A stretch of DNA of 56,181 nt, from IMG/VR virus record IMGVR_UViG_2565956618_000007; one strand, given 5' to 3'. The notes under the pieces were generated by a model. The model was not told the origin of the DNA, ran no database searches, and saw only the letters and a program-made list of their open reading frames with translations. The DNA is from a virus (lineage: Duplodnaviria; Heunggongvirae; Uroviricota; Caudoviricetes). Position numbers and translations under genes: made by a program. Of this stretch, positions 15,875 to 34,499 are shown piece after piece (positions within the stretch are counted from its first letter, which is position 1; each line of letters opens with the position of its first letter).

Positions 15875-16090
15875 ATGAAATCAATGGATAAGTTAACAAC
15901 AGGTGTTGCCTATGGCACATCGGCGGGTAATGCTGGTTTCTGGGCATTACAGTTACTCGATAAAGTAACTCCGTCACAGTGGGCTGCAATCGGTGTGCTG
16001 GGTAGCCTGGTTTTTGGCCTGCTGACGTATCTGACAAATCTTTATTTCAAGATTAAAGAAGACAGGCGTAAGGCTGCGAGAGGAGAGTAA
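15875..16090 (+). CDS. essQ: Pinholin, S21-family (EssQ-like) with dual-start motif MKSM
   Basis: 71-aa product [18 protein letters not shown]…[11 protein letters not shown] closely resembles remembered phage 21 S pinholin; RBS GGGGTGAGGA; two Mets three codons apart. Confidence 0.85.
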
Positions 16091-16094
16091 TCCA

Positions 16095-16402
16095 ATGACT
16101 CAAGACTATGAACTGGTTGTGAAAGGAGTCCGTAATTTTGAGAATAAAGTTACGGTAACTGTAGCCTTACAGGACAAGGAACGCTTTGACGGTGAAATTT
16201 TTGACCTGGATGTCGCCATGGACCGTGTTGAAGGAGCTGCGCTGGAGTTTTATGAGGCAGCAGCCAGAAGGAGCGTCCGGCAAGTCTTCCTGGAAGTAGC
16301 AGAAAAATTGTCAGAAAAAGTTGAGTCTTATCTGCAGCATCAGTACTCCTTTAAGATTGAAAATCCTGCCAATAAGCACGAGCGTCCTCATCATAAATAT
16401 AT

Positions 16403-16406
<4 letters not shown>
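16095..16406 (+). CDS. ydfR: YdfR-like acidic protein between holin and endolysin
   Basis: 103-aa ORF 4 bp after the holin stop, overlapping the endolysin start; same size and position as Qin ydfR. Confidence 0.6.
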
Positions 16407-17430
<1,024 letters not shown>

Positions 17431-17792
17431 GGTAATATTAAATCGGAACATTTACATCGCGGAATGTAAAATTTAAATAAAAAGGACTCTTCCATGAGCC
17501 AAAATTCCTGAAATCTTAAGGGTAAGATAAAAGGTCTTAATCAGAATGACACGTTTTATTAATAAATAAAGCTATTCTTTCATTGCTGTGTTTTTCTTTA
17601 CAAAAGTAATCCTTGCTATGGGTGGTTAATCATGCGTTAATGGTGTTCTGGTTTGTTACAAATTTATCTGAAGCAGTCATTGTTATAATTTTATTATTTG
17701 TACCTCTTGAGATTTCCTTGTTGGTTTTTCTCTCTGATATTTTTTTTCGGACCATTCTGCCCAAGGGCTAATTTCTTCAAAAGGTAATAATT

Positions 17793-18005
17793 ATGTCTAA
17801 CAAAATGACTGGTTTAGTGAAATGGTTTAACCCTGAAAAAGGTTTTGGTTTCATCACGCCGAAAGATGGCAGCAAAGATGTGTTTGTCCATTTCTCAGCA
17901 ATTCAGAGCAACGATTTCAAAACATTAACTGAGAATCAGGAAGTTGAATTTGGTATTGAGAACGGACCTAAAGGTCCTGCCGCTGTTCATGTAGTGGCGC
18001 TTTGA
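17793..18005 (+). CDS. cspI: Cold-shock protein CspI-like
   Basis: 70-aa product [34 protein letters not shown]…; RBS AAGG upstream. Confidence 0.9.
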
Positions 18006-18208
18006 GGTAGACAATATTACAAACCATATTCACTTTAGATGCCCGTGTTGTCATGGTTCCCAGTATAGAACATCATCTTTTGATGTTTCTGACATGAATC
18101 CTTTCGGGGCAAAATGTATCTTTTGTAAATCAATGATGATTACATTTGATAATATTTCACAATACTTAAATGCCAGCCGTCTGTCGTTGGATTTAAAAAA
18201 GTGAAAAT

Positions 18209-18234
18209 GAAGGCTCCTTCGGGAGCTTTTTTGC
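18209..18234 (+). terminator. Intrinsic terminator downstream of cspI region
   Basis: Hairpin GCTCC-TTCG-GGAGC followed by TTTTTTG. Confidence 0.55.
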
Positions 18235-18276
18235 TTGGTATCTATTCGATGGATACTCACATACTACGGTAACATC

Positions 18277-18507
18277 ATGAAAAAAATCATAGTTTTTTTT
18301 AACTCTGAACCAGCAGTGGTAGTGCCAGCGATGACTGGAGTTAACACCATCATGCGTGAATATCCAAATGGCGAAAAAACACACCTTACTGTAATGGCCG
18401 CAGGGTTTCCATCTCTGACCGGAGATCATAAAGTCATTTATGTAGCCGCGGATCGACATGTTACTTCAGAAGAAATTCTGGAAGCAGCAATAAGGCTCTT
18501 GAGTTGA
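18277..18507 (+). CDS. Small hypothetical protein (YnfN-like position)
   Basis: 76-aa product from internal Met MKKIIVFF…; no family recognised. Confidence 0.5.
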   Translation: MKKIIVFFNSEPAVVVPAMTGVNTIMREYPNGEKTHLTVMAAGFPSLTGDHKVIYVAADRHVTSEEILEAAIRLLS

Positions 18508-18678
18508 TTTGATGCTATTGTATTGATAATTCAGGAAAATTCTCTTTGTCTGTTTGTGTAAAATTTAGACTATCGTATGTTGATTATTGCGATGTTTCAT
18601 CTTATCTTTTACACGTTTGCACCATATAATCGACTTACTGTGTAACTGGAAAGTCATAACAGACTAAAAGAGGAAATG

Positions 18679-18852
18679 ATGAATATTGAAAACTTAAAAA
18701 CAAAAGCAGAAGCAGATATTTCTGAATATATAACAAAAAAAATTATTGAACTTAAGAAAAAGACCGGGAAAGAAGTTACCAGTATTCAGTTTACCGCACG
18801 GGAAAAAATGACGGGTCTTGAAAGCTATGATGTCAAGATTAATTTAATCTGA
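18679..18852 (+). CDS. gnsB: GnsB-like small protein
   Basis: 57-aa ORF (below ORF-track cutoff) MNIENLKTKAEADISEYI…FTAREKMTGLESYDVKINLI with RBS AGAGGAA; C-terminal REKMTGLESYDVKI matches remembered GnsA/GnsB. Confidence 0.7.
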   Translation: MNIENLKTKAEADISEYITKKIIELKKKTGKEVTSIQFTAREKMTGLESYDVKINLI

Positions 18853-19003
18853 TGTATTCAATAATAAAATTTATCCATAAACCTCGTTTTTACGGGGTTT
18901 TGTTATATTTGAATGGTTCCGAATATCTAAATCACAATTGTTGATGGTTTTTATTAAACCAATGCAGTCCGGCTCAGGAGTGAGAGAAGCCGGACGTTAT
19001 GGT

Positions 19004-19414
19004 TTAGCGTGGTAAGATCTGTGTAGTTTTCTGGATGCTTTCAGTAAATAGTAATGAGTTATCAAAGGCATAGTAATATCTTTGGTGTTCCTGGATATTT
19101 GTAACCCATCGGAAAACTCCTGCTTTAGCAAGATTTTCCCTGTATTGTTGAAATGTGATTTCTTTTGATTTCAACTTATTATAGGAGGTCTCTATAAGAT
19201 GTTTGTTTCTGGAGAATTTAACATTTACAACCTTTTTGAGTCCTTTTACTAACACTATGTTGTCGTTTTCTAACACAATGTGAATATTATCTGTGGCTAA
19301 ATAGTAAATATAAAGTGAGACATTGTGACGTTTTAGCTCAGAATAAAATAATTCACAGTTTAAATCTTTACGCACTTGATCGAATATTTCTTTAAAAATG
19401 GCAGCCTGAGCCAT
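19004..19414 (-). CDS. ydfO: YdfO-like DUF1398 protein
   Basis: 136-aa product from [18 protein letters not shown]…; resembles remembered Qin YdfO; ORF track offers an upstream start at 19429. Confidence 0.7.
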
Positions 19415-19714
19415 TGGTAAACCTTCCATGTGATACGATGGCGCGTAGTTAGCATTATCGTGTTTATTGTTTCAATCTGGTCTGACCTCTTTGTGTTTTG
19501 TTGATGATTTATGTCAAATATTAAGCCTGTTTTTGATGAATAGTGTTGATTGCGTAACAAAATTGAGCCTTGCTGGCATCCAGGAGGGATATGCAACCGA
19601 CAGATGTATGTAAGGTCGATGTACTCAAACTTTCATACTTTTCCTCTTTTATGCAGTAAGATTTGAAGTAATATTTTAACCGCTAGATGACGAGCAAACG
19701 CATGGAGCGACAAA

Positions 19715-19921
19715 ATGAATAAAGAACAATCTGCTGATGAACTCTCGTTGGATCTGATTCGTGTAAAAAATATGCTTAATAGCACCATTTCTATGAGTTA
19801 CCCGGATGTTGTAATTGCATGTATAGAACATCAGGTGTCTCTGGAAGCATTCAGGGCAATTGAGGCAGCGTTGGTGAAGCACGATAAGAATTCGAAGGAT
19901 TATTCCCTGGTGGTTGACTGA
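19715..19921 (+). CDS. Small hypothetical protein (YnfO-like position)
   Basis: 68-aa ORF upstream of the cos-like region. Confidence 0.5.
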
Positions 19922-20249
19922 GCACCATAACTGCTAATCATTCAAACTATTTCACCTGTGACAGAGTCAATATCGCATTCTGTCACTGTCAGGCTAATAC
20001 AGAGCTGCAATTCAACTACTGCAATGTCCTCGTAATTAGGTGAATTTACAATATCGTCCTGTTCGGATGCCTGTTGCATTGCTGAAGATGAGGCATTTAT
20101 GGTTCGCATATTTTCCCCTCATGCTCGTCAGTCCTGTGCGTAGGAAGAAACAGGACACTCACACTAATTTGTGTGGGCATGCTGTGATGTCCTTCTGAAT
20201 TATTCCTATGCCATTATGTAAAGCGCTGTATCAGATGCTCATCACGGCT

Positions 20250-20305
20250 GTCAGGCTGTCAGGCTGTCGGGTCCTCCCGGTGGGGGCCCCTGCCACGGGG
20301 CGGGA
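20250..20305. other. Candidate cos region: three tandem octamers GTCAGGCT/GTCAGGCT/GTCGGGTC followed by a GC-rich element with central GGGGCCCC palindrome and TCCCG…CGGGA inverted arms
   Basis: Read directly; lies about 180-230 bp upstream of the Nu1-like small terminase gene, where lambdoid cos sites sit; no match to lambda cosN recalled. Confidence 0.3.
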
Positions 20306-20480
20306 GCGTCGCGGAAAAAGACTAGTTTTTGCATTTCCATGGCGGCGGCAGCATGTTTGGTAATTTATTGATAATTAAAAGTTATTTCTCTTTTCACCTG
20401 TACAATATTTTTTCTCCCTGTCATTAGACCAGTTTGCAATTAATTGAAATATATAAATAAACCTGATTTTCACCTGCCAG

Positions 20481-21020
20481 ATGGAGTTGCTTATGTCAAA
20501 TGTGAGCGGGATCGGTGATGCTTATTACTGGAGTGTTTTTAAAATCGCCGAGGCCTTTGGGCTTCACCGGGACACAGTAAAAAAACGGCTCCTCGCGGCC
20601 AACACTCCTGTGGCTGCGACTGTCAGGGGGAACCCCGTTTACGCCCTGCAGCATGTCGGGCCCGCCCTGTTTAGTGTGAAGCATGAGGCAGCAGACTCTG
20701 TTCATGATCCATCCCGTATGGAGCCGAAAGAGAGAAAAGACTGGTACCAGTCTGAAAATGAAAGGATCAAGCTGGAAAAGGAGCAGCGAAAACTCATCCC
20801 AGTTGATGAAGTAGTCATCGTCTATTCGTCCATGAGAAAGGCTGTCGTCCAGGTTCTGGAGACAATTCCGGATGTTCTTGAACGCGATTGCGCCCTGACT
20901 CCTCAGGCCGTCGGCGTTGTACAGCAGGCCATTGATGACCTGCGATACACTCTTCAGGAAAAATCCTACGAGGCTTGTGCTGCTGAATTAATTCCTGATG
21001 AGGAAGGAGAGAGTCTCTAG
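20481..21020 (+). CDS. nohA: Terminase small subunit (Nu1/NohA-like)
   Basis: 179-aa product with N-terminal HTH-like segment and acidic C-terminus; immediately upstream of a large-terminase N-terminal fragment. Confidence 0.75.
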   Translation: MELLMSNVSGIGDAYYWSVFKIAEAFGLHRDTVKKRLLAANTPVAATVRGNPVYALQHVGPALFSVKHEAADSVHDPSRMEPKERKDWYQSENERIKLEKEQRKLIPVDEVVIVYSSMRKAVVQVLETIPDVLERDCALTPQAVGVVQQAIDDLRYTLQEKSYEACAAELIPDEEGESL

Positions 21021-21028
21021 GAGGAATA

Positions 21029-21352
21029 ATGGGTTTTTCATCAGCCCGAAATTTGGGAAGGGACATATCGGCAGGATTTTCCCCACCACGTCGCATGCCG
21101 ATTTCGGAGGCTGTTAAAAAATTCATGCGTGTTCCCAAGGGGGCTGGTAACTCGGTGCCATGGGATCCTGAACTGACACCCTACATCATTGAGCCCATGA
21201 ACTGCCTGGCATCGCGTGAATACGATGCGGTGATTTTTGTTGGTCCTGCGCGAACAGGGAAGACCATTGGTCTGATCGATGGATGGATTGTCTATACCAT
21301 CGTTTGCGATCCTTCGGACATGCTCGTTGTGCAGATGACCGAAGATAAGTGA
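21029..21352 (+). pseudogene. Terminase large subunit (GpA-like), N-terminal 107-codon fragment; truncated
   Basis: RBS AGGAGGAATA then ATG; the product ends after …VQMTEDK at the point where Mu-like prophage DNA appears to begin; intact GpA-type terminases exceed 600 aa. Confidence 0.65.
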
Positions 21353-27485: not shown

Positions 27486-29255
27486 TCAGTTGCCGTTAAC
27501 AATGCTGATAACACTGCTGCTGGCCGGTGTGGTCAGCGTGGCCATGACTTCATCCAGTGCGGCTTCCGGTACGCCGTCCGGGTACTGTGCCGTTAACTGG
27601 CGGTAATGTTCCGGCGTCCAGGTAAGGCCGTCGGCGCTGAACTTATCGCGCAGGGCTTTCGCGGCCTCCACATGAGTCATGGGACGTTGTTCAGTGCGCG
27701 GCCCGCGTACGTCAGAGGCCTGACCACGCTTCGGCATATAGGCCGGAAGTGTGGTGTCGTCGATATGTTTATACGGGTCAAGCCGCCCGCCGAACGGCAG
27801 CGCCTTCGCCTTGCGTGCGGCGGCTGCATCTGCGGCGTTGTCTGTACCGGTAACCAGCGCTTCAGTTTCTTTTGCCGCCATCTGTGCCGGGGTTTCCGGC
27901 AGGGCTTTGTAACTTTCGCCAAATACCGCCGCGCCTTCAGCAAAGCCAAACTCGTTCTTTCTGACCTCTTCGACCAGGAAGAACGTCTCGTGGCCGTCCT
28001 CACCGGTCAGAACCACCTGTGCCACATCGCTGCGCCATGGGTTACGGGTAATCATCAGTTTTTCACCAACCAGTACGCCCGGTACCGTTGATACGTCAAA
28101 TTCAGTGCCCCGGAACGAGACACGAAGTTTTGGCGTGACTTTGCGGAGTTCTGGTGCCGCCACAGCCAGTTCACGACATACCTCAACGGAAGGCGCTTTT
28201 TTCAGCTGCTCAGCAGTAATCTTCAGCCAGATATCCGTGCGGGTTTTACCGTGGCGGCTGTGAACAGCCGTGGCGTTAAAGTGGCTGCGCCATTTCGCGG
28301 CCAGCGCGTTGAGTTCTTCCAGACTGTGAACCGGCCGGAACTTCAGACCCGGCTCCAGCTTGCGTTCGATAATGTCCCGCGCCTTTTCCACCTGTCCGGT
28401 GGCGCGGGCGTTATGCGGCTTGTGCGCTATCAGGTCAATGCCCAGTGAGCGGCACATGTTTTTCGTCATACCCGCGGTGTTTGCCGAGCCGGGGTCGAGA
28501 TAGAGTATTTTTGGCACGCCGTGCAGCACGTCTGCGCCGCCACGCTCCTGCATGGCGTTGATAAGCACAGAACACAGGTTCTCACCGGATTCCGCACCCG
28601 TCACATACTCAACGTAAATCCAGCCGCTGGCATGGTCGGTAATCTCATAACTCCACACGCGGTCACTGGCGATACGGGCAAGGTTAGCGGGCTTGTTCTT
28701 GTAGAATTTCGCGCTGTCCATCACCTGCAGCCCTTTGTGTCCATTGCTCAGGTAGTAAAGCGTGCAGAGCGAGGCATCAATCTGCCAGACGTGATTGGGA
28801 TGCAGACTGGCCACTTCGGTATGCGGCGCAGGGGCATCCAGTTGTTCCGGGTGCAGGCCATAGTTACGCAGGGCACGGCTGATGGCATCTTCGGACAACG
28901 GGAAAAACTCACCGGTGGTTTCATCTGTTCTGCCTGCGGAGATAAAGCCGTTAGCCCGCAGGGTTTCCACTGCATCTGCGATGGAATAGAGACGCTTACC
29001 GTTCTTGCGGGTGGCCTCACGCAGTGTGGCAGATATCAGCGCGGCTTCGTCGCGGGTCAGGGCGCTGCGCCCGGCATCGGCGCGTTTTTTGCGTTTATCA
29101 GTCACAGAGACCTCCTTCAGCCTGCGCAGCAGAGTGGCGCGGGACATGCCAAGTTCAGCACAGGCAGCGTCGTATATTGCACCGCGTTTACCATGCCCCG
29201 CGTCACGTGCCGCGCGGGCGACATAAACCAGTCGTTCAGTCAGGGCAGCATTCAT
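27486..29255 (-). CDS. Mu A-like DDE transposase
   Basis: 589-aa product with N-terminal DNA-binding region and rve-type core (…HVWQIDAS…LYLDPGSAN… and a downstream E). Confidence 0.9.
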   Translation of the reverse strand: MNAALTERLVYVARAARDAGHGKRGAIYDAACAELGMSRATLLRRLKEVSVTDKRKKRADAGRSALTRDEAALISATLREATRKNGKRLYSIADAVETLRANGFISAGRTDETTGEFFPLSEDAISRALRNYGLHPEQLDAPAPHTEVASLHPNHVWQIDASLCTLYYLSNGHKGLQVMDSAKFYKNKPANLARIASDRVWSYEITDHASGWIYVEYVTGAESGENLCSVLINAMQERGGADVLHGVPKILYLDPGSANTAGMTKNMCRSLGIDLIAHKPHNARATGQVEKARDIIERKLEPGLKFRPVHSLEELNALAAKWRSHFNATAVHSRHGKTRTDIWLKITAEQLKKAPSVEVCRELAVAAPELRKVTPKLRVSFRGTEFDVSTVPGVLVGEKLMITRNPWRSDVAQVVLTGEDGHETFFLVEEVRKNEFGFAEGAAVFGESYKALPETPAQMAAKETEALVTGTDNAADAAAARKAKALPFGGRLDPYKHIDDTTLPAYMPKRGQASDVRGPRTEQRPMTHVEAAKALRDKFSADGLTWTPEHYRQLTAQYPDGVPEAALDEVMATLTTPASSSVISIVNGN

Positions 29256-29258
29256 TGG

Positions 29259-30170
29259 TTATGCCTCCAGCCCGTTAATCTGTGGCGTCGGCTCAGTCAG
29301 CCATGAAGGCGCGACATCGCCTGTTGGCTCGTCCGGCAGGTCAAATGTGGAGCGCAGGCTACGCGCTGTGCTTTCCAGTTGACAGACCAGGCCTGCCATG
29401 AAGTCTCTGGGGGTATCAATCATGTTTTCAGCACAATATGCGCACAGTGTCTCAAAAGCGCTGGACAGTCGAACGGCGATGGCAGATTCCGCCTCAACCG
29501 CTAATGCTGTCACTTCCGCCCGCAGCTTCTTAACCTCCTCATCAGGCTCAGGCAGCTGAATACGGGATTTCTTTTCCAGTCTGGTAGAGAGAGAATCAAT
29601 TTTTTCATTTTTATCGGCGAGTACGCGCTGTTGTGCTGCGTTGGTTTCGCGCGCTTCGCGCAGGGCCTGGCGAAGTTCGCGTACTGACATGCGATCAACG
29701 TCGTCAAGCGTCAGGCCGGCAACTGTGCCGCCGTCGGCCAGTTCGGCAAGCTCTTCGTCGTCTTCTGTCATTAATTCGAAAAGTTTGGCTTTTCCCAAAT
29801 GTGCCAACGTTGGCACATTTGGTTTCAGCGCCGGGGATAAGTATTTTGTCGATGCTTGCATCATTCTCACAGATGTCCGGTATGCCAGCCCCAACTCACT
29901 TTCAAGAATCTTTATAAACTCCCCGTGTGGTTCATTTTCCTTAAGGATTATCAGCCGCTTACCTGCCTCCAGCATGGCCTCAGCGCTCTGTGCCATATAA
30001 AAGCGTGCCTCATGGACAACACGATCGCGCTCATAAGGCAGACCATCGCCGAACTGTTGCATGATTTCCATGCGATGCTGTGTCATGGCGTTTAGACTGA
30101 CATTGAGATCATCCGACAGCGGTACCTCGACGTTCAGTTCAGTGCTAACCGGTGATTTGGTGCGTCCCAT
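29259..30170 (-). CDS. Hypothetical early protein (DUF3102-like)
   Basis: 303-aa ORF between ner-proximal regulators and the transposase. Confidence 0.55.
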   Translation of the reverse strand: MGRTKSPVSTELNVEVPLSDDLNVSLNAMTQHRMEIMQQFGDGLPYERDRVVHEARFYMAQSAEAMLEAGKRLIILKENEPHGEFIKILESELGLAYRTSVRMMQASTKYLSPALKPNVPTLAHLGKAKLFELMTEDDEELAELADGGTVAGLTLDDVDRMSVRELRQALREARETNAAQQRVLADKNEKIDSLSTRLEKKSRIQLPEPDEEVKKLRAEVTALAVEAESAIAVRLSSAFETLCAYCAENMIDTPRDFMAGLVCQLESTARSLRSTFDLPDEPTGDVAPSWLTEPTPQINGLEA

Positions 30171-30180
30171 TGATTACTCC

Positions 30181-30489
30181 TTACAAACGACTACCTGAAA
30201 TAACACGTTGGTTGATTTCGTTAATGCGATCCTGTGCACGTGCCATCTCGTTACTGTGGGCCATGGCGATCTGCAGCAACTGGATGCCTGGTGCGAAACG
30301 CCCGTTTTCTAGTTTCAGAGCCAACCCTTCTTCAATGAGCGTGTTAAGTGCCCGGTTGATGTTTGCCGGTGATTCGTGCAGTGCAACCGCTAGTTCCCCG
30401 TTAGAAACACCGTTCAAAGCGTGGCCACGTAAGGCCTTAAGAACGCGCAAAATACGGATACCTGAGCTTGATGTATTTGGTTTATTCAT
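30181..30489 (-). CDS. Winged-helix DNA-binding protein
   Basis: 102-aa ORF; GVSNGELAVALHESPANINRALNTLIEEGLA resembles IclR/MarR-type wHTH. Confidence 0.55.
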   Translation of the reverse strand: MNKPNTSSSGIRILRVLKALRGHALNGVSNGELAVALHESPANINRALNTLIEEGLALKLENGRFAPGIQLLQIAMAHSNEMARAQDRINEINQRVISGSRL

Positions 30490-30716
30490 GACGCCTCCTT
30501 AAGGATACCGGGGGTAACTTCTTTACCTATTGCAACCGATAGATCTCGCAAAATCCGATAAGTCAAACGACCGCGAGGTAGTTCACTTTTACCAGCCCAG
30601 CGACTGACTGCCTGGGTGACTGTTCGTGGTTCATAGCCCGCGTTAAGCGCGAACTGGCGCAAGCTACTGCCTCGTTCAACCAGCCGTGCCCGAACTTGTT
30701 GTTTGTTCATATGCAC
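30486..30716 (-). CDS. ner: Ner-like DNA-binding protein (Ner/Nlp family)
   Basis: 76-aa product, first gene of the leftward operon, divergent from the repressor; …SLRQFALNAGYEPRTVTQAVSRW… follows the Ner HTH pattern. Confidence 0.65.
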   Translation of the reverse strand: MHMNKQQVRARLVERGSSLRQFALNAGYEPRTVTQAVSRWAGKSELPRGRLTYRILRDLSVAIGKEVTPGILKEAS

Positions 30717-30798
30717 CGTGTTCCTGTTAGGTTATGATGTACTCTATTGGGTCTATTGTACACACCCAAATGAGTGTGTCAAATTGAGATATGTTCAA
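30717..30798. promoter_or_regulatory. Divergent promoter/operator region between ner and repressor; near-palindrome CACACCC-N4-GAGTGTG
   Basis: 82-bp intergenic region between divergent regulator genes; imperfect inverted repeat at about 30763-30780; promoters not mapped. Confidence 0.45.
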
Positions 30799-31206
30799 AT
30801 GAGTACAAAAGAGAGATTGCGTGAAGTGATGGATGCTAATGGCATGACAATAAAGGCATTATCTGACTTATCAAAAATTCCATATCGCTCACTTCAAAAC
30901 TATTTGCGTGGAGAGAGAGAACCAAACGCAGAGGCTCTTGTTGCGCTAAGTACCCATTTGGGTGTATCAATCGATTGGCTACTTACCGGTAAAGAACATA
31001 TTCCATCTAAAGAAATTGTTGCTGTACCAACACAACATCAATTCAGCCCGTCAGACCTTAAAATGCTTGAACTTCTAAACCAGTTAGATCCTGAGGTTCG
31101 GCGAGATCTCATGCGAGGCGCTGAAGAAAAACAGCGTGTGATTGAGATGGAAAAACAACTGAAGGAATTATCCGCAACGATTGAGCGGTTAAAAAATGTG
31201 GGTTAA
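30799..31206 (+). CDS. XRE-family HTH repressor of the Mu-like prophage (c-repressor analogue)
   Basis: 135-aa product from MSTKERLREVMDANGMTIKALSDLSKIPYRSLQNYLRG…; HTH_XRE N-terminus, coiled-coil C-terminus; divergent from ner. Confidence 0.75.
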   Translation: MSTKERLREVMDANGMTIKALSDLSKIPYRSLQNYLRGEREPNAEALVALSTHLGVSIDWLLTGKEHIPSKEIVAVPTQHQFSPSDLKMLELLNQLDPEVRRDLMRGAEEKQRVIEMEKQLKELSATIERLKNVG

Positions 31207-31276
31207 TGTGTTCCTAACGAGAACATATAGCAGAAATTATTTGCCATTAAGCAATAAAAAATAAGGTGGATAGCCA

Positions 31277-32284
31277 ATGTCTGAGCAGACCATTGAAGTT
31301 AAACACGTTGTAGTTCACATTTTAGACAAACAACAAAATGGAGACGCTTCTGAGAGATTGAGTCCTGAAGAAGGTCTAGTTACTGAAGCCTCTCAGCGCC
31401 TTATAAACGATATTTGTGCAAAATATGCAGGACGCACAGGTAAAGGTTATGGCTATTTTGAAGGCGATACGGATAACTATCCTATGGAACGAATGGCTGG
31501 GGACTTTCTCGAAGGTGTTGATGATTTCTACCAAAGTTCCTGCCGAATGATGCATCACCTGACGGAACGTTCTCAGCGAGAAAACATGGCTACTGGTGGT
31601 TATGTTCTTTTTGCAAATATCGTGATAGGACACAATGAACACCTGTTGATAGCTATTGTAAGCGCTACCATTGGGTCCACTGTCACAGATGATTTTAACA
31701 TCCAAGATAGTACCTATCTTGATATTGCTAAGCTGCGTATGGCTGGGCGCATTGACTTAACCGCGTGGGAAAGTGGCGCAGAGCGCTATATCAGTTTTCT
31801 TAAGGGGCAAGGTAATGTTTCAAACTATTTTAAACAGTTCCTAGGCTGTAATGATGTCTTAATCGCCAAACGAGAGTCTGAAAAGTTACGTGACGTTTTA
31901 AAAGCATTTGCGGCAGAGAAAGGACTTGACGGCGCTGAAAAAGATGCATTTCTTAAGAGTGCGTTTGAACACTTACATGCACTAAGTAAGGCTGGTGAAC
32001 CACTTAGTCTTGAAACCCTTGTTAATGCCATTTGGCCCCAGGCTCCCGAGGAGTTATCTGGTAAACTTGCTGCTGAAGAGTTGGAGTTATCGGATGGCTT
32101 CGTTCCTGATGGTCGAGTCATTCGGGCTCTGGTATCTTTTAAAGGCAAGTCTAAATATTGGGAACTTAAGTTTGACCGGGAAGGGAAAACTGAAGGCTAT
32201 ATTGATTATGATCCGGAAACAAATATTATCACCCTACGTAATGTACCTGAAGAATTTAGGGAAATGTGGATGACTGAGGTTTAA
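31277..32284 (+). CDS. NdpA/YejK-family nucleoid-associated-protein homologue; first gene of repressor-linked accessory module
   Basis: 335-aa product; GGYVLFANIVIGHNEHLLIAIV and RIDLTAWESGAERYISFLKGQGNVSNYFKQFLGCNDVL align with remembered E. coli YejK; AT-richer than flanks. Confidence 0.85.
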   Translation: MSEQTIEVKHVVVHILDKQQNGDASERLSPEEGLVTEASQRLINDICAKYAGRTGKGYGYFEGDTDNYPMERMAGDFLEGVDDFYQSSCRMMHHLTERSQRENMATGGYVLFANIVIGHNEHLLIAIVSATIGSTVTDDFNIQDSTYLDIAKLRMAGRIDLTAWESGAERYISFLKGQGNVSNYFKQFLGCNDVLIAKRESEKLRDVLKAFAAEKGLDGAEKDAFLKSAFEHLHALSKAGEPLSLETLVNAIWPQAPEELSGKLAAEELELSDGFVPDGRVIRALVSFKGKSKYWELKFDREGKTEGYIDYDPETNIITLRNVPEEFREMWMTEV

Positions 32285-32286
32285 TC

Positions 32287-33492
32287 GTGGCGATTTCATT
32301 TGAGATGCTGACAGCTCTGTATCGTCGTATGGAATTCCAAGAGGGGTTTCGTGTCGGTTCGCTGTTGCTCTTAGATCAGTCCGATTGTGATCTGGTTGAT
32401 ACTTTGCTTGATGATCCTCGTGAATATGGTCTTTCTATTGATACAGGCACTATCGCTCCAGGTAACACGATCATCCTACGTGTGACGTCACCACGGAGTG
32501 GACTGGGACTTGTGTTTTCCACCCATGAAAAATTGCTAAATGCTCCAAAGCATCAGTGCCTTGAGCCAGCTAATTACTTCATCCTAGAAACAAAATTTCG
32601 TAATGATGATGAAGATATCCCCGTTTTCATCAGCAACTACCGGAAGATTCTCGAGTTCGTTAACCTGCTAAAAGAGGCCGCGGCCTACTTTGATAACTCA
32701 ACTTGTCAGTTAGTTTTTCTGAAAAAAGAAGTTATCAAGCTATTACCGCACTTCGCTGCAGAAAATGTACAAAATTTGCAAAGGGAGTATCTTGATAACC
32801 TTATAGCTTGTTTCAATGATGATACCCATAAGGATCAGAAGCTAGATATTCTGATTGAAAGTATTCAAGCAGTTAGTGATGGAATTGATTCACCTCTAGT
32901 ATTCGCTTATTTACTGGACAATATTCAGCGTCTGCATGAAAAGTTTCTGAAAGGGTATCGTATCTACTCTTCTGGATTCTCTTATGACAAAGTAATGGAT
33001 CAACTGCGTGCTGCAAAAGTCGAAGAAATGGGTAAAATCCACAAAGCGTTTTCAGATATCCAGAACCATATACTTGGCATTCCTGTTGCCTCTGTTATCG
33101 TAGCTACCCAATTCAAAGTGGCTACGAAATGGTCAGGCCAAGGGATAACAAACACAATAATTCTTCTGGGATGCATTTTTGCTGCAACGTTAATCTGGCT
33201 GGCACTTTCGAACCAGATGCAATCTATAAAGGCCTTAGGCGAAGAAATTGAATACAAAGAAAAACAGATTAATAAGGAATATTCCTTCATTAAAGATGAC
33301 GTGGCTGGTGTATTTAGCAGTATTTCTGCGCGACTAGACACGCAGAAACGTACGTTCTGGATTATACGTGGTGTTCTAGTTATGGGAATTATTACCGCTA
33401 TCACTGTTTATTTTTGGTACACAAAACCAGCCCTTGACTTCATGCAGTACTTGATTCACTGCATGAAGTCTTACTATTCGGTCAAAAGTTGA
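32287..33492 (+). CDS. Protein with soluble N-terminal domain and two C-terminal TM helices; second gene of accessory module (candidate membrane effector)
   Basis: GTG start 2 nt after the upstream stop (alternative ATG at 32305); hydrophobic segments ITNTIILLGCIFAATLIWLALS and TFWIIRGVLVMGIITAITVYFWY; no family recognised. Confidence 0.8.
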   Translation: MAISFEMLTALYRRMEFQEGFRVGSLLLLDQSDCDLVDTLLDDPREYGLSIDTGTIAPGNTIILRVTSPRSGLGLVFSTHEKLLNAPKHQCLEPANYFILETKFRNDDEDIPVFISNYRKILEFVNLLKEAAAYFDNSTCQLVFLKKEVIKLLPHFAAENVQNLQREYLDNLIACFNDDTHKDQKLDILIESIQAVSDGIDSPLVFAYLLDNIQRLHEKFLKGYRIYSSGFSYDKVMDQLRAAKVEEMGKIHKAFSDIQNHILGIPVASVIVATQFKVATKWSGQGITNTIILLGCIFAATLIWLALSNQMQSIKALGEEIEYKEKQINKEYSFIKDDVAGVFSSISARLDTQKRTFWIIRGVLVMGIITAITVYFWYTKPALDFMQYLIHCMKSYYSVKS

Positions 33493-34252
33493 GGATAATG
33501 AGTTCCTTCTTGCGACTGGATTTGCCAGTGATCTTGAGGTTGTAGCTGATATCAACCGACTGAATATTTAGACCGTTGAATGCCTGCCGCATTTCCGGGA
33601 TATCGTTCACCGATATAATCATCTTCCCTTTGATCCTGCGTGCTAAATCTGCCATATGATCATAATTTTCTAGTCCGAACTCCACACCATAACCTTCCGT
33701 TCCCCAGTATGGAGGGTCACAGTAGAACAACGTATGCGGGCGATCATATCGTTCTATGCACTGTTGCCAGTCCATGTGTTCTATGACCGTTCTGGAAAGC
33801 CGCAGGTGTGCCGCTGACAGTTCTTCTTCAATACGCAGCAGGTTGAAGCGTGGCGGGGATATGGTGGAGGTACCAAAGCTGTGCTCCGCCACCTTGCCCC
33901 CAAACGCCTGCTTCTGAAGGTAGTAGAACCGTGCTGCACGCTGGATATCCGTCAGTGTTTCTTCCGGGGTGATCTGCAGCCATTTGTAGATCTGCCGGCT
34001 GACCAGCGCCCATTTGAACTGGCGTACAAATTCTTCCAGATGATGTTTTACCACCCGATACAGGTTCACCAGCTCACCGTTGATATCATTAATGACTTCG
34101 ATCTTGCCGGGTACCTTAAGAAAATAGAGCGCTGCTGCCCCACAAAACGGCTCCACATAACATTCATGCGCCGGAAACAGCGGCAGGATGTGTTTTGCAA
34201 GGCGGCGTTTGCCACCAATCCATGGAACGATGGGTAATGTCTGCATTTTCAT
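33482..34252 (-). CDS. dam: DNA N6-adenine methyltransferase (Dam-like)
   Basis: 256-aa product with FCGAAALYF (SAM-binding motif I) and DPPY catalytic motif; convergent with the accessory module, overlapping by 11 nt. Confidence 0.85.
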   Translation of the reverse strand: MKMQTLPIVPWIGGKRRLAKHILPLFPAHECYVEPFCGAAALYFLKVPGKIEVINDINGELVNLYRVVKHHLEEFVRQFKWALVSRQIYKWLQITPEETLTDIQRAARFYYLQKQAFGGKVAEHSFGTSTISPPRFNLLRIEEELSAAHLRLSRTVIEHMDWQQCIERYDRPHTLFYCDPPYWGTEGYGVEFGLENYDHMADLARRIKGKMIISVNDIPEMRQAFNGLNIQSVDISYNLKITGKSSRKKELIILNF

Positions 34253-34499
34253 AATCTGTAAGCCTTTTACAATTATAAAAAATATGGCAGGCTAGTCTGG
34301 TCTCGCGAGACTGACTGAACCTTGGTCGGCTCACAGCGCATTCCTGTGGGGCGATGGCCAGCCCGGTGTTCGGGTACCGGGCTGGTCGTTCTTTCAAAGC
34401 CATCATGCAGTGCACGTTTACATCTTCACTATTAACGCTGTTTAAAATCCGTATCCCGCCACATTTGTGATGCTGTCTCCACCAAACGAGGAGACACAC

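Follow-up and report, generated by a model that had tools for sequence, protein, structure and literature searches.

Results

A two-gene cassette lies between the repressor and dam genes of a Mu-like prophage

We analysed a 56,181-nucleotide stretch of tailed-phage DNA (IMG/VR record IMGVR_UViG_2565956618_000007; hereafter the window), in particular the two genes that lie between the repressor gene and the dam gene of a Mu-like prophage. The first (gene 1) encodes a member of the NA37/YejK family of nucleoid-associated proteins (NAPs), and the second (gene 2) a membrane protein; RefSeq lists the products as 'nucleoid-associated protein' and 'hypothetical protein'. By their sequence layout the two genes are translationally coupled. 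The initial annotation of the segment had described a tightly spaced pair, approximately 70 bp downstream of and co-directional with a repressor gene and bounded by a convergent dam gene, and each of these points was borne out (Table 1). Its term 'Mu-like repressor' needs amending: a repressor is present, but it is a CI/DicA/RstR-type helix-turn-helix (HTH) protein and not a homologue of Mu c.

Table 1. Features of the cassette and its borders, in window coordinates.
Feature	Coordinates	Strand	Remarks
Prophage repressor, CI/DicA/RstR-type HTH, 135 aa	30799..31206	+	RefSeq start; Pfam HTH_3 (E = 5.9e-12) and Phage_CI_repr (E = 2.5e-6); NCBIfam DicA and RstR subfamilies
Spacer from repressor stop to gene 1 start, 70 nt	31207..31276	+	Holds the left cassette junction (31226/31227) and an AAGGTGG ribosome-binding site
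Whole cassette, 2,274 bp	31227..33500	+	Delimited by blastn against sister prophages; GC 0.412
Gene 1, NA37/YejK-family nucleoid-associated protein, 335 aa	31277..32284	+	Pfam NA37; AAGGTGG ribosome-binding site upstream
Gene 2, membrane protein, 401 aa, GTG start	32287..33492	+	GAGG site within the 3' end of gene 1; starts 2 nt after gene 1
Gene 2, N-terminal alpha/beta domain, aa 1-214	32287..32928	+	Acidic; AlphaFold2 model
Gene 2, long helix, aa 213-275	32923..33111	+	Best-conserved family motif, GY..F.SGFSYDKV...FSDIQNQILGIPVAT
Gene 2, first predicted transmembrane segment (hydrophobic), aa 285-311	33139..33219	+	Kyte-Doolittle 19-residue mean 2.33; within model helix 285-331
Gene 2, second predicted transmembrane segment (hydrophobic), aa 356-378	33352..33420	+	Kyte-Doolittle mean 1.95; within model helix 333-378
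dam, Dam-family adenine methylase	33482..34252	-	Pfam MethyltransfD12 (E = 7e-28); TIGR00571 dam; convergent

Among complete E. coli genomes, this repressor family occurs in 62, and 19 of these also have the two-gene module. Comparison by blastn with two cassette-less relatives, the prophage of E. coli CFSAN051542 (locus L008) and a contig deposited as a Klebsiella phage (OM835952.1, locus L002), gave homology over window positions 29001-31226 that resumed at 33501. In these sister BcepMu-like prophages, the place of the 2,274-bp cassette is taken by 615 bp with an unrelated 175-aa open reading frame (ORF). The bordering genes are shared: in the cassette-less sisters, identity is 83% for the repressor and, from 33501 onward, 86% for dam. 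Both belong, by sequence, to the phage backbone outside the cassette, and the conserved dam, which has 11 nt in common with the 3' end of gene 2, marks the right boundary. The exact swap bears out the earlier suggestion of acquired cargo: as read from these alignments, the pair is acquired mobile cargo in a variable slot beside the repressor. A further claim, that the segment is AT-richer than its surroundings, stood in part. The GC content of the cassette is 0.412, as compared with 0.555 for the early operon, 0.499 for dam and 0.578 for the late genes, but the repressor gene likewise has a GC content of 0.412, and the AT-rich tract begins approximately 500 bp before the cassette rather than at its boundary.

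The position of the cassette varies among its carriers. In BcepMu-like phages it is found either between repressor and dam, as in the window, or beyond dam and before the lysis genes (L015, L026); in the more distant transposable phages L060, L062 and L066 the pair again lies directly downstream of a repressor-like gene. The alternative cargo of the sister prophages (175-177 aa; positions 5552-6079 of L008 and 8446-8979 of L002) occupies the same position as window 31227-33500, gave only a partial match to phrog_10002, and may be another lysogen-expressed accessory gene. A second variable slot lies between dam and the holin gene; it measures ~30 bp in the window (34397-34426), and the sisters (L008 7042-8008, and L002) carry there ~970 bp with a DUF2441 gene. 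Searches of PADLOC and NCBIfam gave no match for either the 175-aa ORF or the DUF2441 protein. We dropped the idea that the repressor-proximal site is a proven defence hotspot, because its alternative cargo lacked such matches, and refer to it as a variable cargo slot only.

The two genes travel as a pair

We scanned IMG/VR with an alignment of the gene 2 family, which yielded 56 loci, 54 of them with enough upstream sequence. In 53/54 loci, gene 2 was directly preceded by an NA37 gene in the same orientation; in the one exception the gene 2 ORF was disrupted and the NA37 gene was still there. Salmonella, Citrobacter and Morganella have the pair in lambdoid prophages, where it fills the slot that separates the Q antiterminator gene from the holin gene. 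It is also present in Sinorhizobium phage phi2LM21, in an Acinetobacter prophage and on a Shewanella contig, while in Paraburkholderia it resides in a chromosomal non-phage island, adjoining an Mrr-type restriction gene. The association seen in the window is thus kept by its homologues, in prophages as well as in one island. Judged by this co-occurrence, the NA37 gene and the membrane-protein gene form an obligate mobile unit.

Some of these loci have neighbours of their own interest. In phi2LM21 (L009 628-3718), an unrelated alphaproteobacterial phage, the next gene after the pair is likewise convergent and encodes an adenine methyltransferase, which may be coincidence or a recurrent neighbourhood. 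A Citrobacter lambdoid prophage with a homologue of the cassette has further cargo (L068 11039-12265, L069 12976-13485), namely a gene for a colicin-domain protein (PF01024) and, in one copy of this prophage, a gene for a Schlafen/AlbA_2-domain protein. One Citrobacter prophage thus combines several cargos for competition or defence.

Gene 1 encodes a paralogue of YejK

The gene 1 protein matched Pfam NA37 (PF04245) over its full length (E = 1e-80; 272 bits, cut-off 24.6), with aa 12-327 aligned to profile positions 1-324 of 325, in agreement with its earlier assignment as an NdpA/YejK homologue. It also matched the structure of E. coli YejK (PDB 9be2, E = 6.8e-30) and belongs to phrog_3767. 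Its score against the NCBIfam YejK equivalog model NF001557 was 186.2 bits, below the cut-off of 341; the protein is therefore a paralogue, and not the orthologue, of housekeeping YejK. It shares with the chromosomal E. coli YejK/NdpA protein the same Pfam family over the full length, but differs in that it is a prophage-borne paralogue, always paired with a membrane partner.

Gene 2 encodes a predicted membrane protein with a conserved central helix

No Pfam domain was found in the gene 2 product, and no Pfam family except NA37 reached E ≤ 0.1 for either protein of the pair. Gene 2 belongs to phrog_5023 and to a family with 1,285 cluster representatives at 50% identity (E ≤ 1e-3), which are of uniform length (approximately 390-420 aa) and speak for gene 2 as a real gene; some of these clusters are named 'phage-related membrane protein' in UniRef. 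An AlphaFold2 model built on 56 homologues (predicted local distance difference test score, pLDDT, 81.7) consists of an alpha/beta N-terminal domain (aa 1-211 in this model), a long helix and a helical hairpin. Modelled alone, the N-terminal domain reached a pLDDT of 93.7 and a predicted template modelling score of 0.89.

The N-terminal part of the protein is acidic throughout the family: of the 56 homologues, 98% have a negative net charge over aa 1-210 (mean -8.1), and aa 1-262 of the window protein have a net charge of -11 and an isoelectric point of 5.1. A PDB sequence search with the family profile gave no match, and this domain has no solved structural relative. The invariant columns of the family are G223, F231, S232, Y233, K235, D257, I258, Q259, P266, A268 and T274. 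In the model, the two hydrophobic segments pair as a C-terminal helical hairpin (aa 285-331 and 333-378), so that the predicted order of a soluble domain followed by two hydrophobic helices was confirmed; a third, weaker hydrophobic segment lies at aa 262-280. We saw a resemblance of gene 2 to CorA and ClyA, which we did not count as evidence, and assigned no fold.

The pair is related to DS-1 and shares the architecture of type II PANGU

DS-1 is a two-gene E. coli system that came out of DefensePredictor, in a study whose list of domains with a newly validated defence role includes the 'YejK nucleoid-associated domain' (DeWeirdt et al., Science 2026, PMC13092281). Its locus (NZ_RRVY01000002.1, 220602-222994) comprises genes at 220602-221777 and 221780-222994 with a 2-nt gap, the partner protein having 404 aa (DeWeirdt et al., 2026, Table S8). 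Protection, as -log efficiency of plating, was 7.6 for Bas1, 2.7 for Bas26, and 1.7 for Bas3 and T3 (DeWeirdt et al., 2026, supplementary tables including Table S6). The NCBIfam release of June 2026 contains models for both DS-1 proteins, NF053868 (DS1_1_antiphage, 'nucleoid-associated anti-phage protein') and NF053869 (DS1_2_antiphage, 'anti-phage protein'). Gene 1 matched the former with E = 1.4e-17 and gene 2 the latter with E = 3e-21 over aa 74-366; NF053869 was also matched by 56/56 sampled gene 2 homologues. Direct comparison gave consistent results: BLASTP aligned gene 2 with DS-1B at 23% identity over 302 aa (E = 6e-10), profile-sequence hhalign gave this match a probability of 95.7%, and gene 1 aligned with DS-1A at E = 8e-9.

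The two systems thus have in common an NA37/YejK-like gene in first position, a partner of ~400 aa in second, 2-nt spacing and an E. coli origin, and DS-1B likewise combines an acidic N-terminal half (net charge -8) with a hydrophobic C-terminal part. They differ in that DS-1A carries an additional N-terminal extension of ~40 aa, a zinc-ribbon-like CxxC...CxxC motif that is missing from the window protein and its close relatives and that may have been added in one lineage for regulation or DNA binding. Moreover, the hydrophobic segments of DS-1B are weaker, none reaching a Kyte-Doolittle mean of 1.6. The DS-1A extension is annotated as NinF-like in the HHpred table of its authors. The RefSeq accessions of the window proteins are not listed in the DefensePredictor supplements, and a literature search for these accessions returned nothing.

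The second relevant group, the PANGU systems, uses YejK-like proteins as infection sensors (Li et al., bioRxiv 2026, 10.64898/2026.04.06.716658). Type II PANGU consists of the NAP Pag2A and of Pag2B, in which an acidic, DNA-mimicking (DMK) domain at the N-terminus is combined with a transmembrane (TM) domain at the C-terminus, the bicistronic operon being defined by an intergenic distance of < 40 bp; in the E. coli strain example both genes were required and the phenotype was abortive. The isolated N-terminal domain of Pag2B bound Pag2A with a Kd of 19 nM (Li et al., 2026). Of these features, the window pair has a YejK-like NAP in an operon with its partner, well within that distance, and C-terminal hydrophobic helices in the partner (aa 285-311 and 356-378). 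By analogy, the acidic N-terminal domain of gene 2 is a candidate docking domain for the nucleoid protein, equivalent to the DMK domain of the preprint. The logic proposed for type II PANGU, in which a sensor released from the nucleoid acts on a membrane effector and infection is aborted, agrees with the layout of the window pair. Type II PANGU, with one validated example from E. coli, differs from the window pair in genomic setting, the latter being prophage-borne and beside a repressor; PANGU systems were found through defence-island linkage, and prophages are not mentioned in the preprint (Li et al., 2026). Likened by architecture alone, the window pair may be the same system, a close relative or a separate branch.

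NdpA/YejK-family proteins are thus already named components of validated defence systems, both DS-1 and PANGU containing one. This overturns two statements of the initial annotation, that no such protein was known from a named defence system and that the system was undescribed: the pair matched NF053868 and NF053869, and type II PANGU has the same architecture. It is a member of a described superfamily, in a branch other than that of DS-1.

Read-through from the repressor gene as the simplest proposed expression route

A terminator scan found no intrinsic terminator between the repressor gene and gene 1. Nor did the 70-nt gap contain a convincing promoter; the sole promoter-like site was weak and located inside the end of the repressor gene, and match counts of the promoter scan across the region equalled the shuffled expectation. 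The spacer also showed no unusual RNA structure (fold z-score -0.11). Because terminator and convincing promoter are both missing from the gap, read-through of the lysogenic repressor transcript into the pair, as in lambda cI-rexA-rexB, is a plausible and the simplest reading, with the repressor gene as the likely source of transcription in lysogens. Another promoter must also be usable, since in lambdoid hosts the cassette stands alone, at times on the strand opposite to its neighbours.

The match of the dam gene downstream of the pair to the PADLOC MTase_II model PDLC03253 (E = 3.7e-115) extended over nearly the full length, and no restriction partner lies nearby. It is an orphan phage methylase, plausibly with an anti-restriction role.

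The carrier prophage has changed its insertion site

The prophage that carries the cassette is a transposable Mu-like element with an rve-type MuA-like transposase, an ExeA/MuB-like gene, Gam, Mor and Mu-type head genes, combined with tail genes of the P2-like contractile type. From a central regulatory region, the early genes run leftward and the late genes rightward, which is the BcepMu-like layout of divergent arms. In E. coli M-17 (L001, L067), a prophage with 99.4% identity to window 21350-56181 is located between rstA and rstB, splitting this two-component operon; only the prophage, from 21350 onward, is shared between the window and M-17. In the window, the end of the prophage abuts 21349/21350, within the large-terminase gene of a Qin-like lambdoid prophage, i.e. 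the Mu-like prophage is nested inside another prophage, represented by window 1-21349. Specifically, window 16000-21349 is 100% identical to the Qin-like prophage of E. coli ATCC 25922, a stretch that carries essD, rrrQ, rzpQ, cspI, gnsB and DUF1441, and the match ends ~320 nt into the large-terminase gene. Since the insertion sites differ between strains, the element has transposed, which fits spread by transposition.

The contig OM835952.1 used above, deposited as 'Klebsiella phage KP12 clone KP12_2', is the genome of a BcepMu-like transposable phage closely related to the window prophage. The name KP12 under which it was deposited is that of a lytic phage of the Vequintavirinae; rather than belonging to KP12, the contig is probably a prophage that was induced or co-assembled.

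Discussion

By homology and architecture, the segment is probably a mobile two-gene anti-phage cassette of the DS-1/type II PANGU kind and the cargo of a transposable, BcepMu-like E. coli prophage. More broadly, the comparison with both systems makes it very probable that the pair is an anti-phage system composed of a cytoplasmic DNA-binding sensor and a membrane effector; the gene 1 protein, which resembles DS-1A and Pag2A, is presumed to be the infection sensor, and gene 2, which resembles DS-1B and Pag2B, the effector. Several points weigh against the narrower assignment. Homology to DS-1 is remote, with ~23% identity in both proteins, and the scores of 63.7 bits (NF053868, cut-off 330) and 75.9 bits (NF053869, cut-off 315) fall short of the equivalog level; being so far below the cut-offs, they place the pair in a different branch of the superfamily and not in DS-1 itself. 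Identity with type II PANGU would rest on architecture only, the evidence for PANGU comes from a preprint, and that preprint leaves the mode of action of Pag2B unexplained (Li et al., 2026). In addition, PADLOC v2 (2023) holds no model for gene 1, and the N-terminal domain of gene 2 is only moderately acidic, with a net charge of -11 over 262 aa.

We hold the details of the mechanism less firmly than the class assignment. In a lysogen, the pair would be transcribed, the simplest route being an extension of the repressor transcript, with the YejK-like gene 1 protein presumably coating the nucleoid and the membrane protein idle. To judge from the homologous systems, an infecting lytic phage that degrades or displaces the host DNA would free the gene 1 protein, which would then dock on the acidic N-terminal domain of gene 2. 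We infer that the conserved helix and the hairpin of gene 2 would subsequently compromise the inner membrane, and that infection would be aborted.

The initial annotation had proposed a Rex-like exclusion system. This comparison retains its value for the layout and, by homology, for a role in defence: like lambda rexA-rexB, the pair lies downstream of a prophage repressor and co-directional with it, and would combine a cytoplasmic DNA-binding component with a membrane component, abortive infection of lysogens being the expected outcome. It fails at the level of the proteins, neither of which had a Pfam match to RexA or RexB even at E ≤ 10. RexB is a membrane protein that is small and polytopic and has no large soluble domain, whereas the putative effector of the window has a cytoplasmic part of 280 aa and a two-helix hairpin.

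The ~23% identity to DS-1 and the prophage-borne position beside a repressor led us to ask if this branch is a distinct lineage of nucleoid-protein immunity. Such a lineage would be a Rex analogue that transposable and lambdoid prophages express from the lysogenic transcript, with a new N-terminal receptor domain for the freed nucleoid protein, a new action of the hairpin on the membrane and maybe a trigger other than DNA breakdown of the T4 EndoII type. We offer this as a tentative proposal that is rather unlikely to hold in full.

Alternatively, the pair could act in superinfection exclusion without cell death, the membrane protein blocking or trapping incoming DNA with the help of its DNA-binding partner, so that the lysogen survives. 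A place beside the repressor is typical of exclusion genes, and a membrane protein with a large cytoplasmic domain and a DNA-binding partner would suit this role. The behaviour of type II PANGU points elsewhere: growth stalls at high multiplicity of infection, T4 escapes by mutation of denA, which encodes the host-DNA nuclease endonuclease II (EndoII), and not of injection functions, and GFP-Pag2A departs from the nucleoid on infection (Li et al., 2026). These observations count only if the window cassette behaves alike, and with this proviso we consider exclusion without cell death improbable.

Still less probable is an accessory role in the phage life cycle, in which the prophage would use a nucleoid protein of its own, held in place or regulated by a membrane partner, to aid transposition, replication or nucleoid remodelling. 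The carrier is transposable, with its MuA-like rve transposase, MuB/ExeA-like gene, Mor and Gam, NA37 proteins bind DNA, and the use of HU and IHF by Mu offers a parallel. However, most sister prophages do without the pair and have unrelated cargo at the same site, the pair is equally found in lambdoid prophages, which do not transpose, and in an island outside any phage, the GC content of the cassette differs from that of the phage backbone, and the homologous DS-1 protects against phages when cloned alone.

We give marginally less credence again to a toxin-antitoxin-like addiction module, which would stabilize the prophage through a toxic membrane protein and a nucleoid protein that acts as its antidote. 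A tightly coupled two-gene operon with a potentially toxic membrane protein would be in line with this, but the NAP-first order and the equal, large sizes of the products are atypical of toxin-antitoxin pairs, and in the PANGU constructs neither the single genes nor the pair were toxic, the NAP being an activator and not an antitoxin (Li et al., 2026). Finally, a relationship between KwaA and the membrane portion at the C-terminus of gene 2, which would make the pair a Kiwa-like system, was suggested by a PADLOC KwaA match at aa 262-394 (E = 8.1e-5) and rejected as scarcely credible, because only 2/56 family members reproduced the match at E ≤ 1e-3, neither a KwaB/DUF4868 gene nor Pfam support was found, and the match spans the hydrophobic helices, where composition alone yields weak matches.

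The reading as an anti-phage cassette of the DS-1/type II PANGU kind attaches a name and a testable mechanism to a gene pair that is barely annotated in RefSeq. In gene 2, the N-terminal domain, for which no relative has been solved, and the helix with the conserved FSYDKV...FSDIQNQILGIPVAT motif offer concrete targets for mutagenesis. For temperate phages, the distribution of the pair would mean that they carry nucleoid-protein-based immunity, in a repressor-proximal slot in Mu-like phages and in the slot between Q and holin in lambdoid phages.

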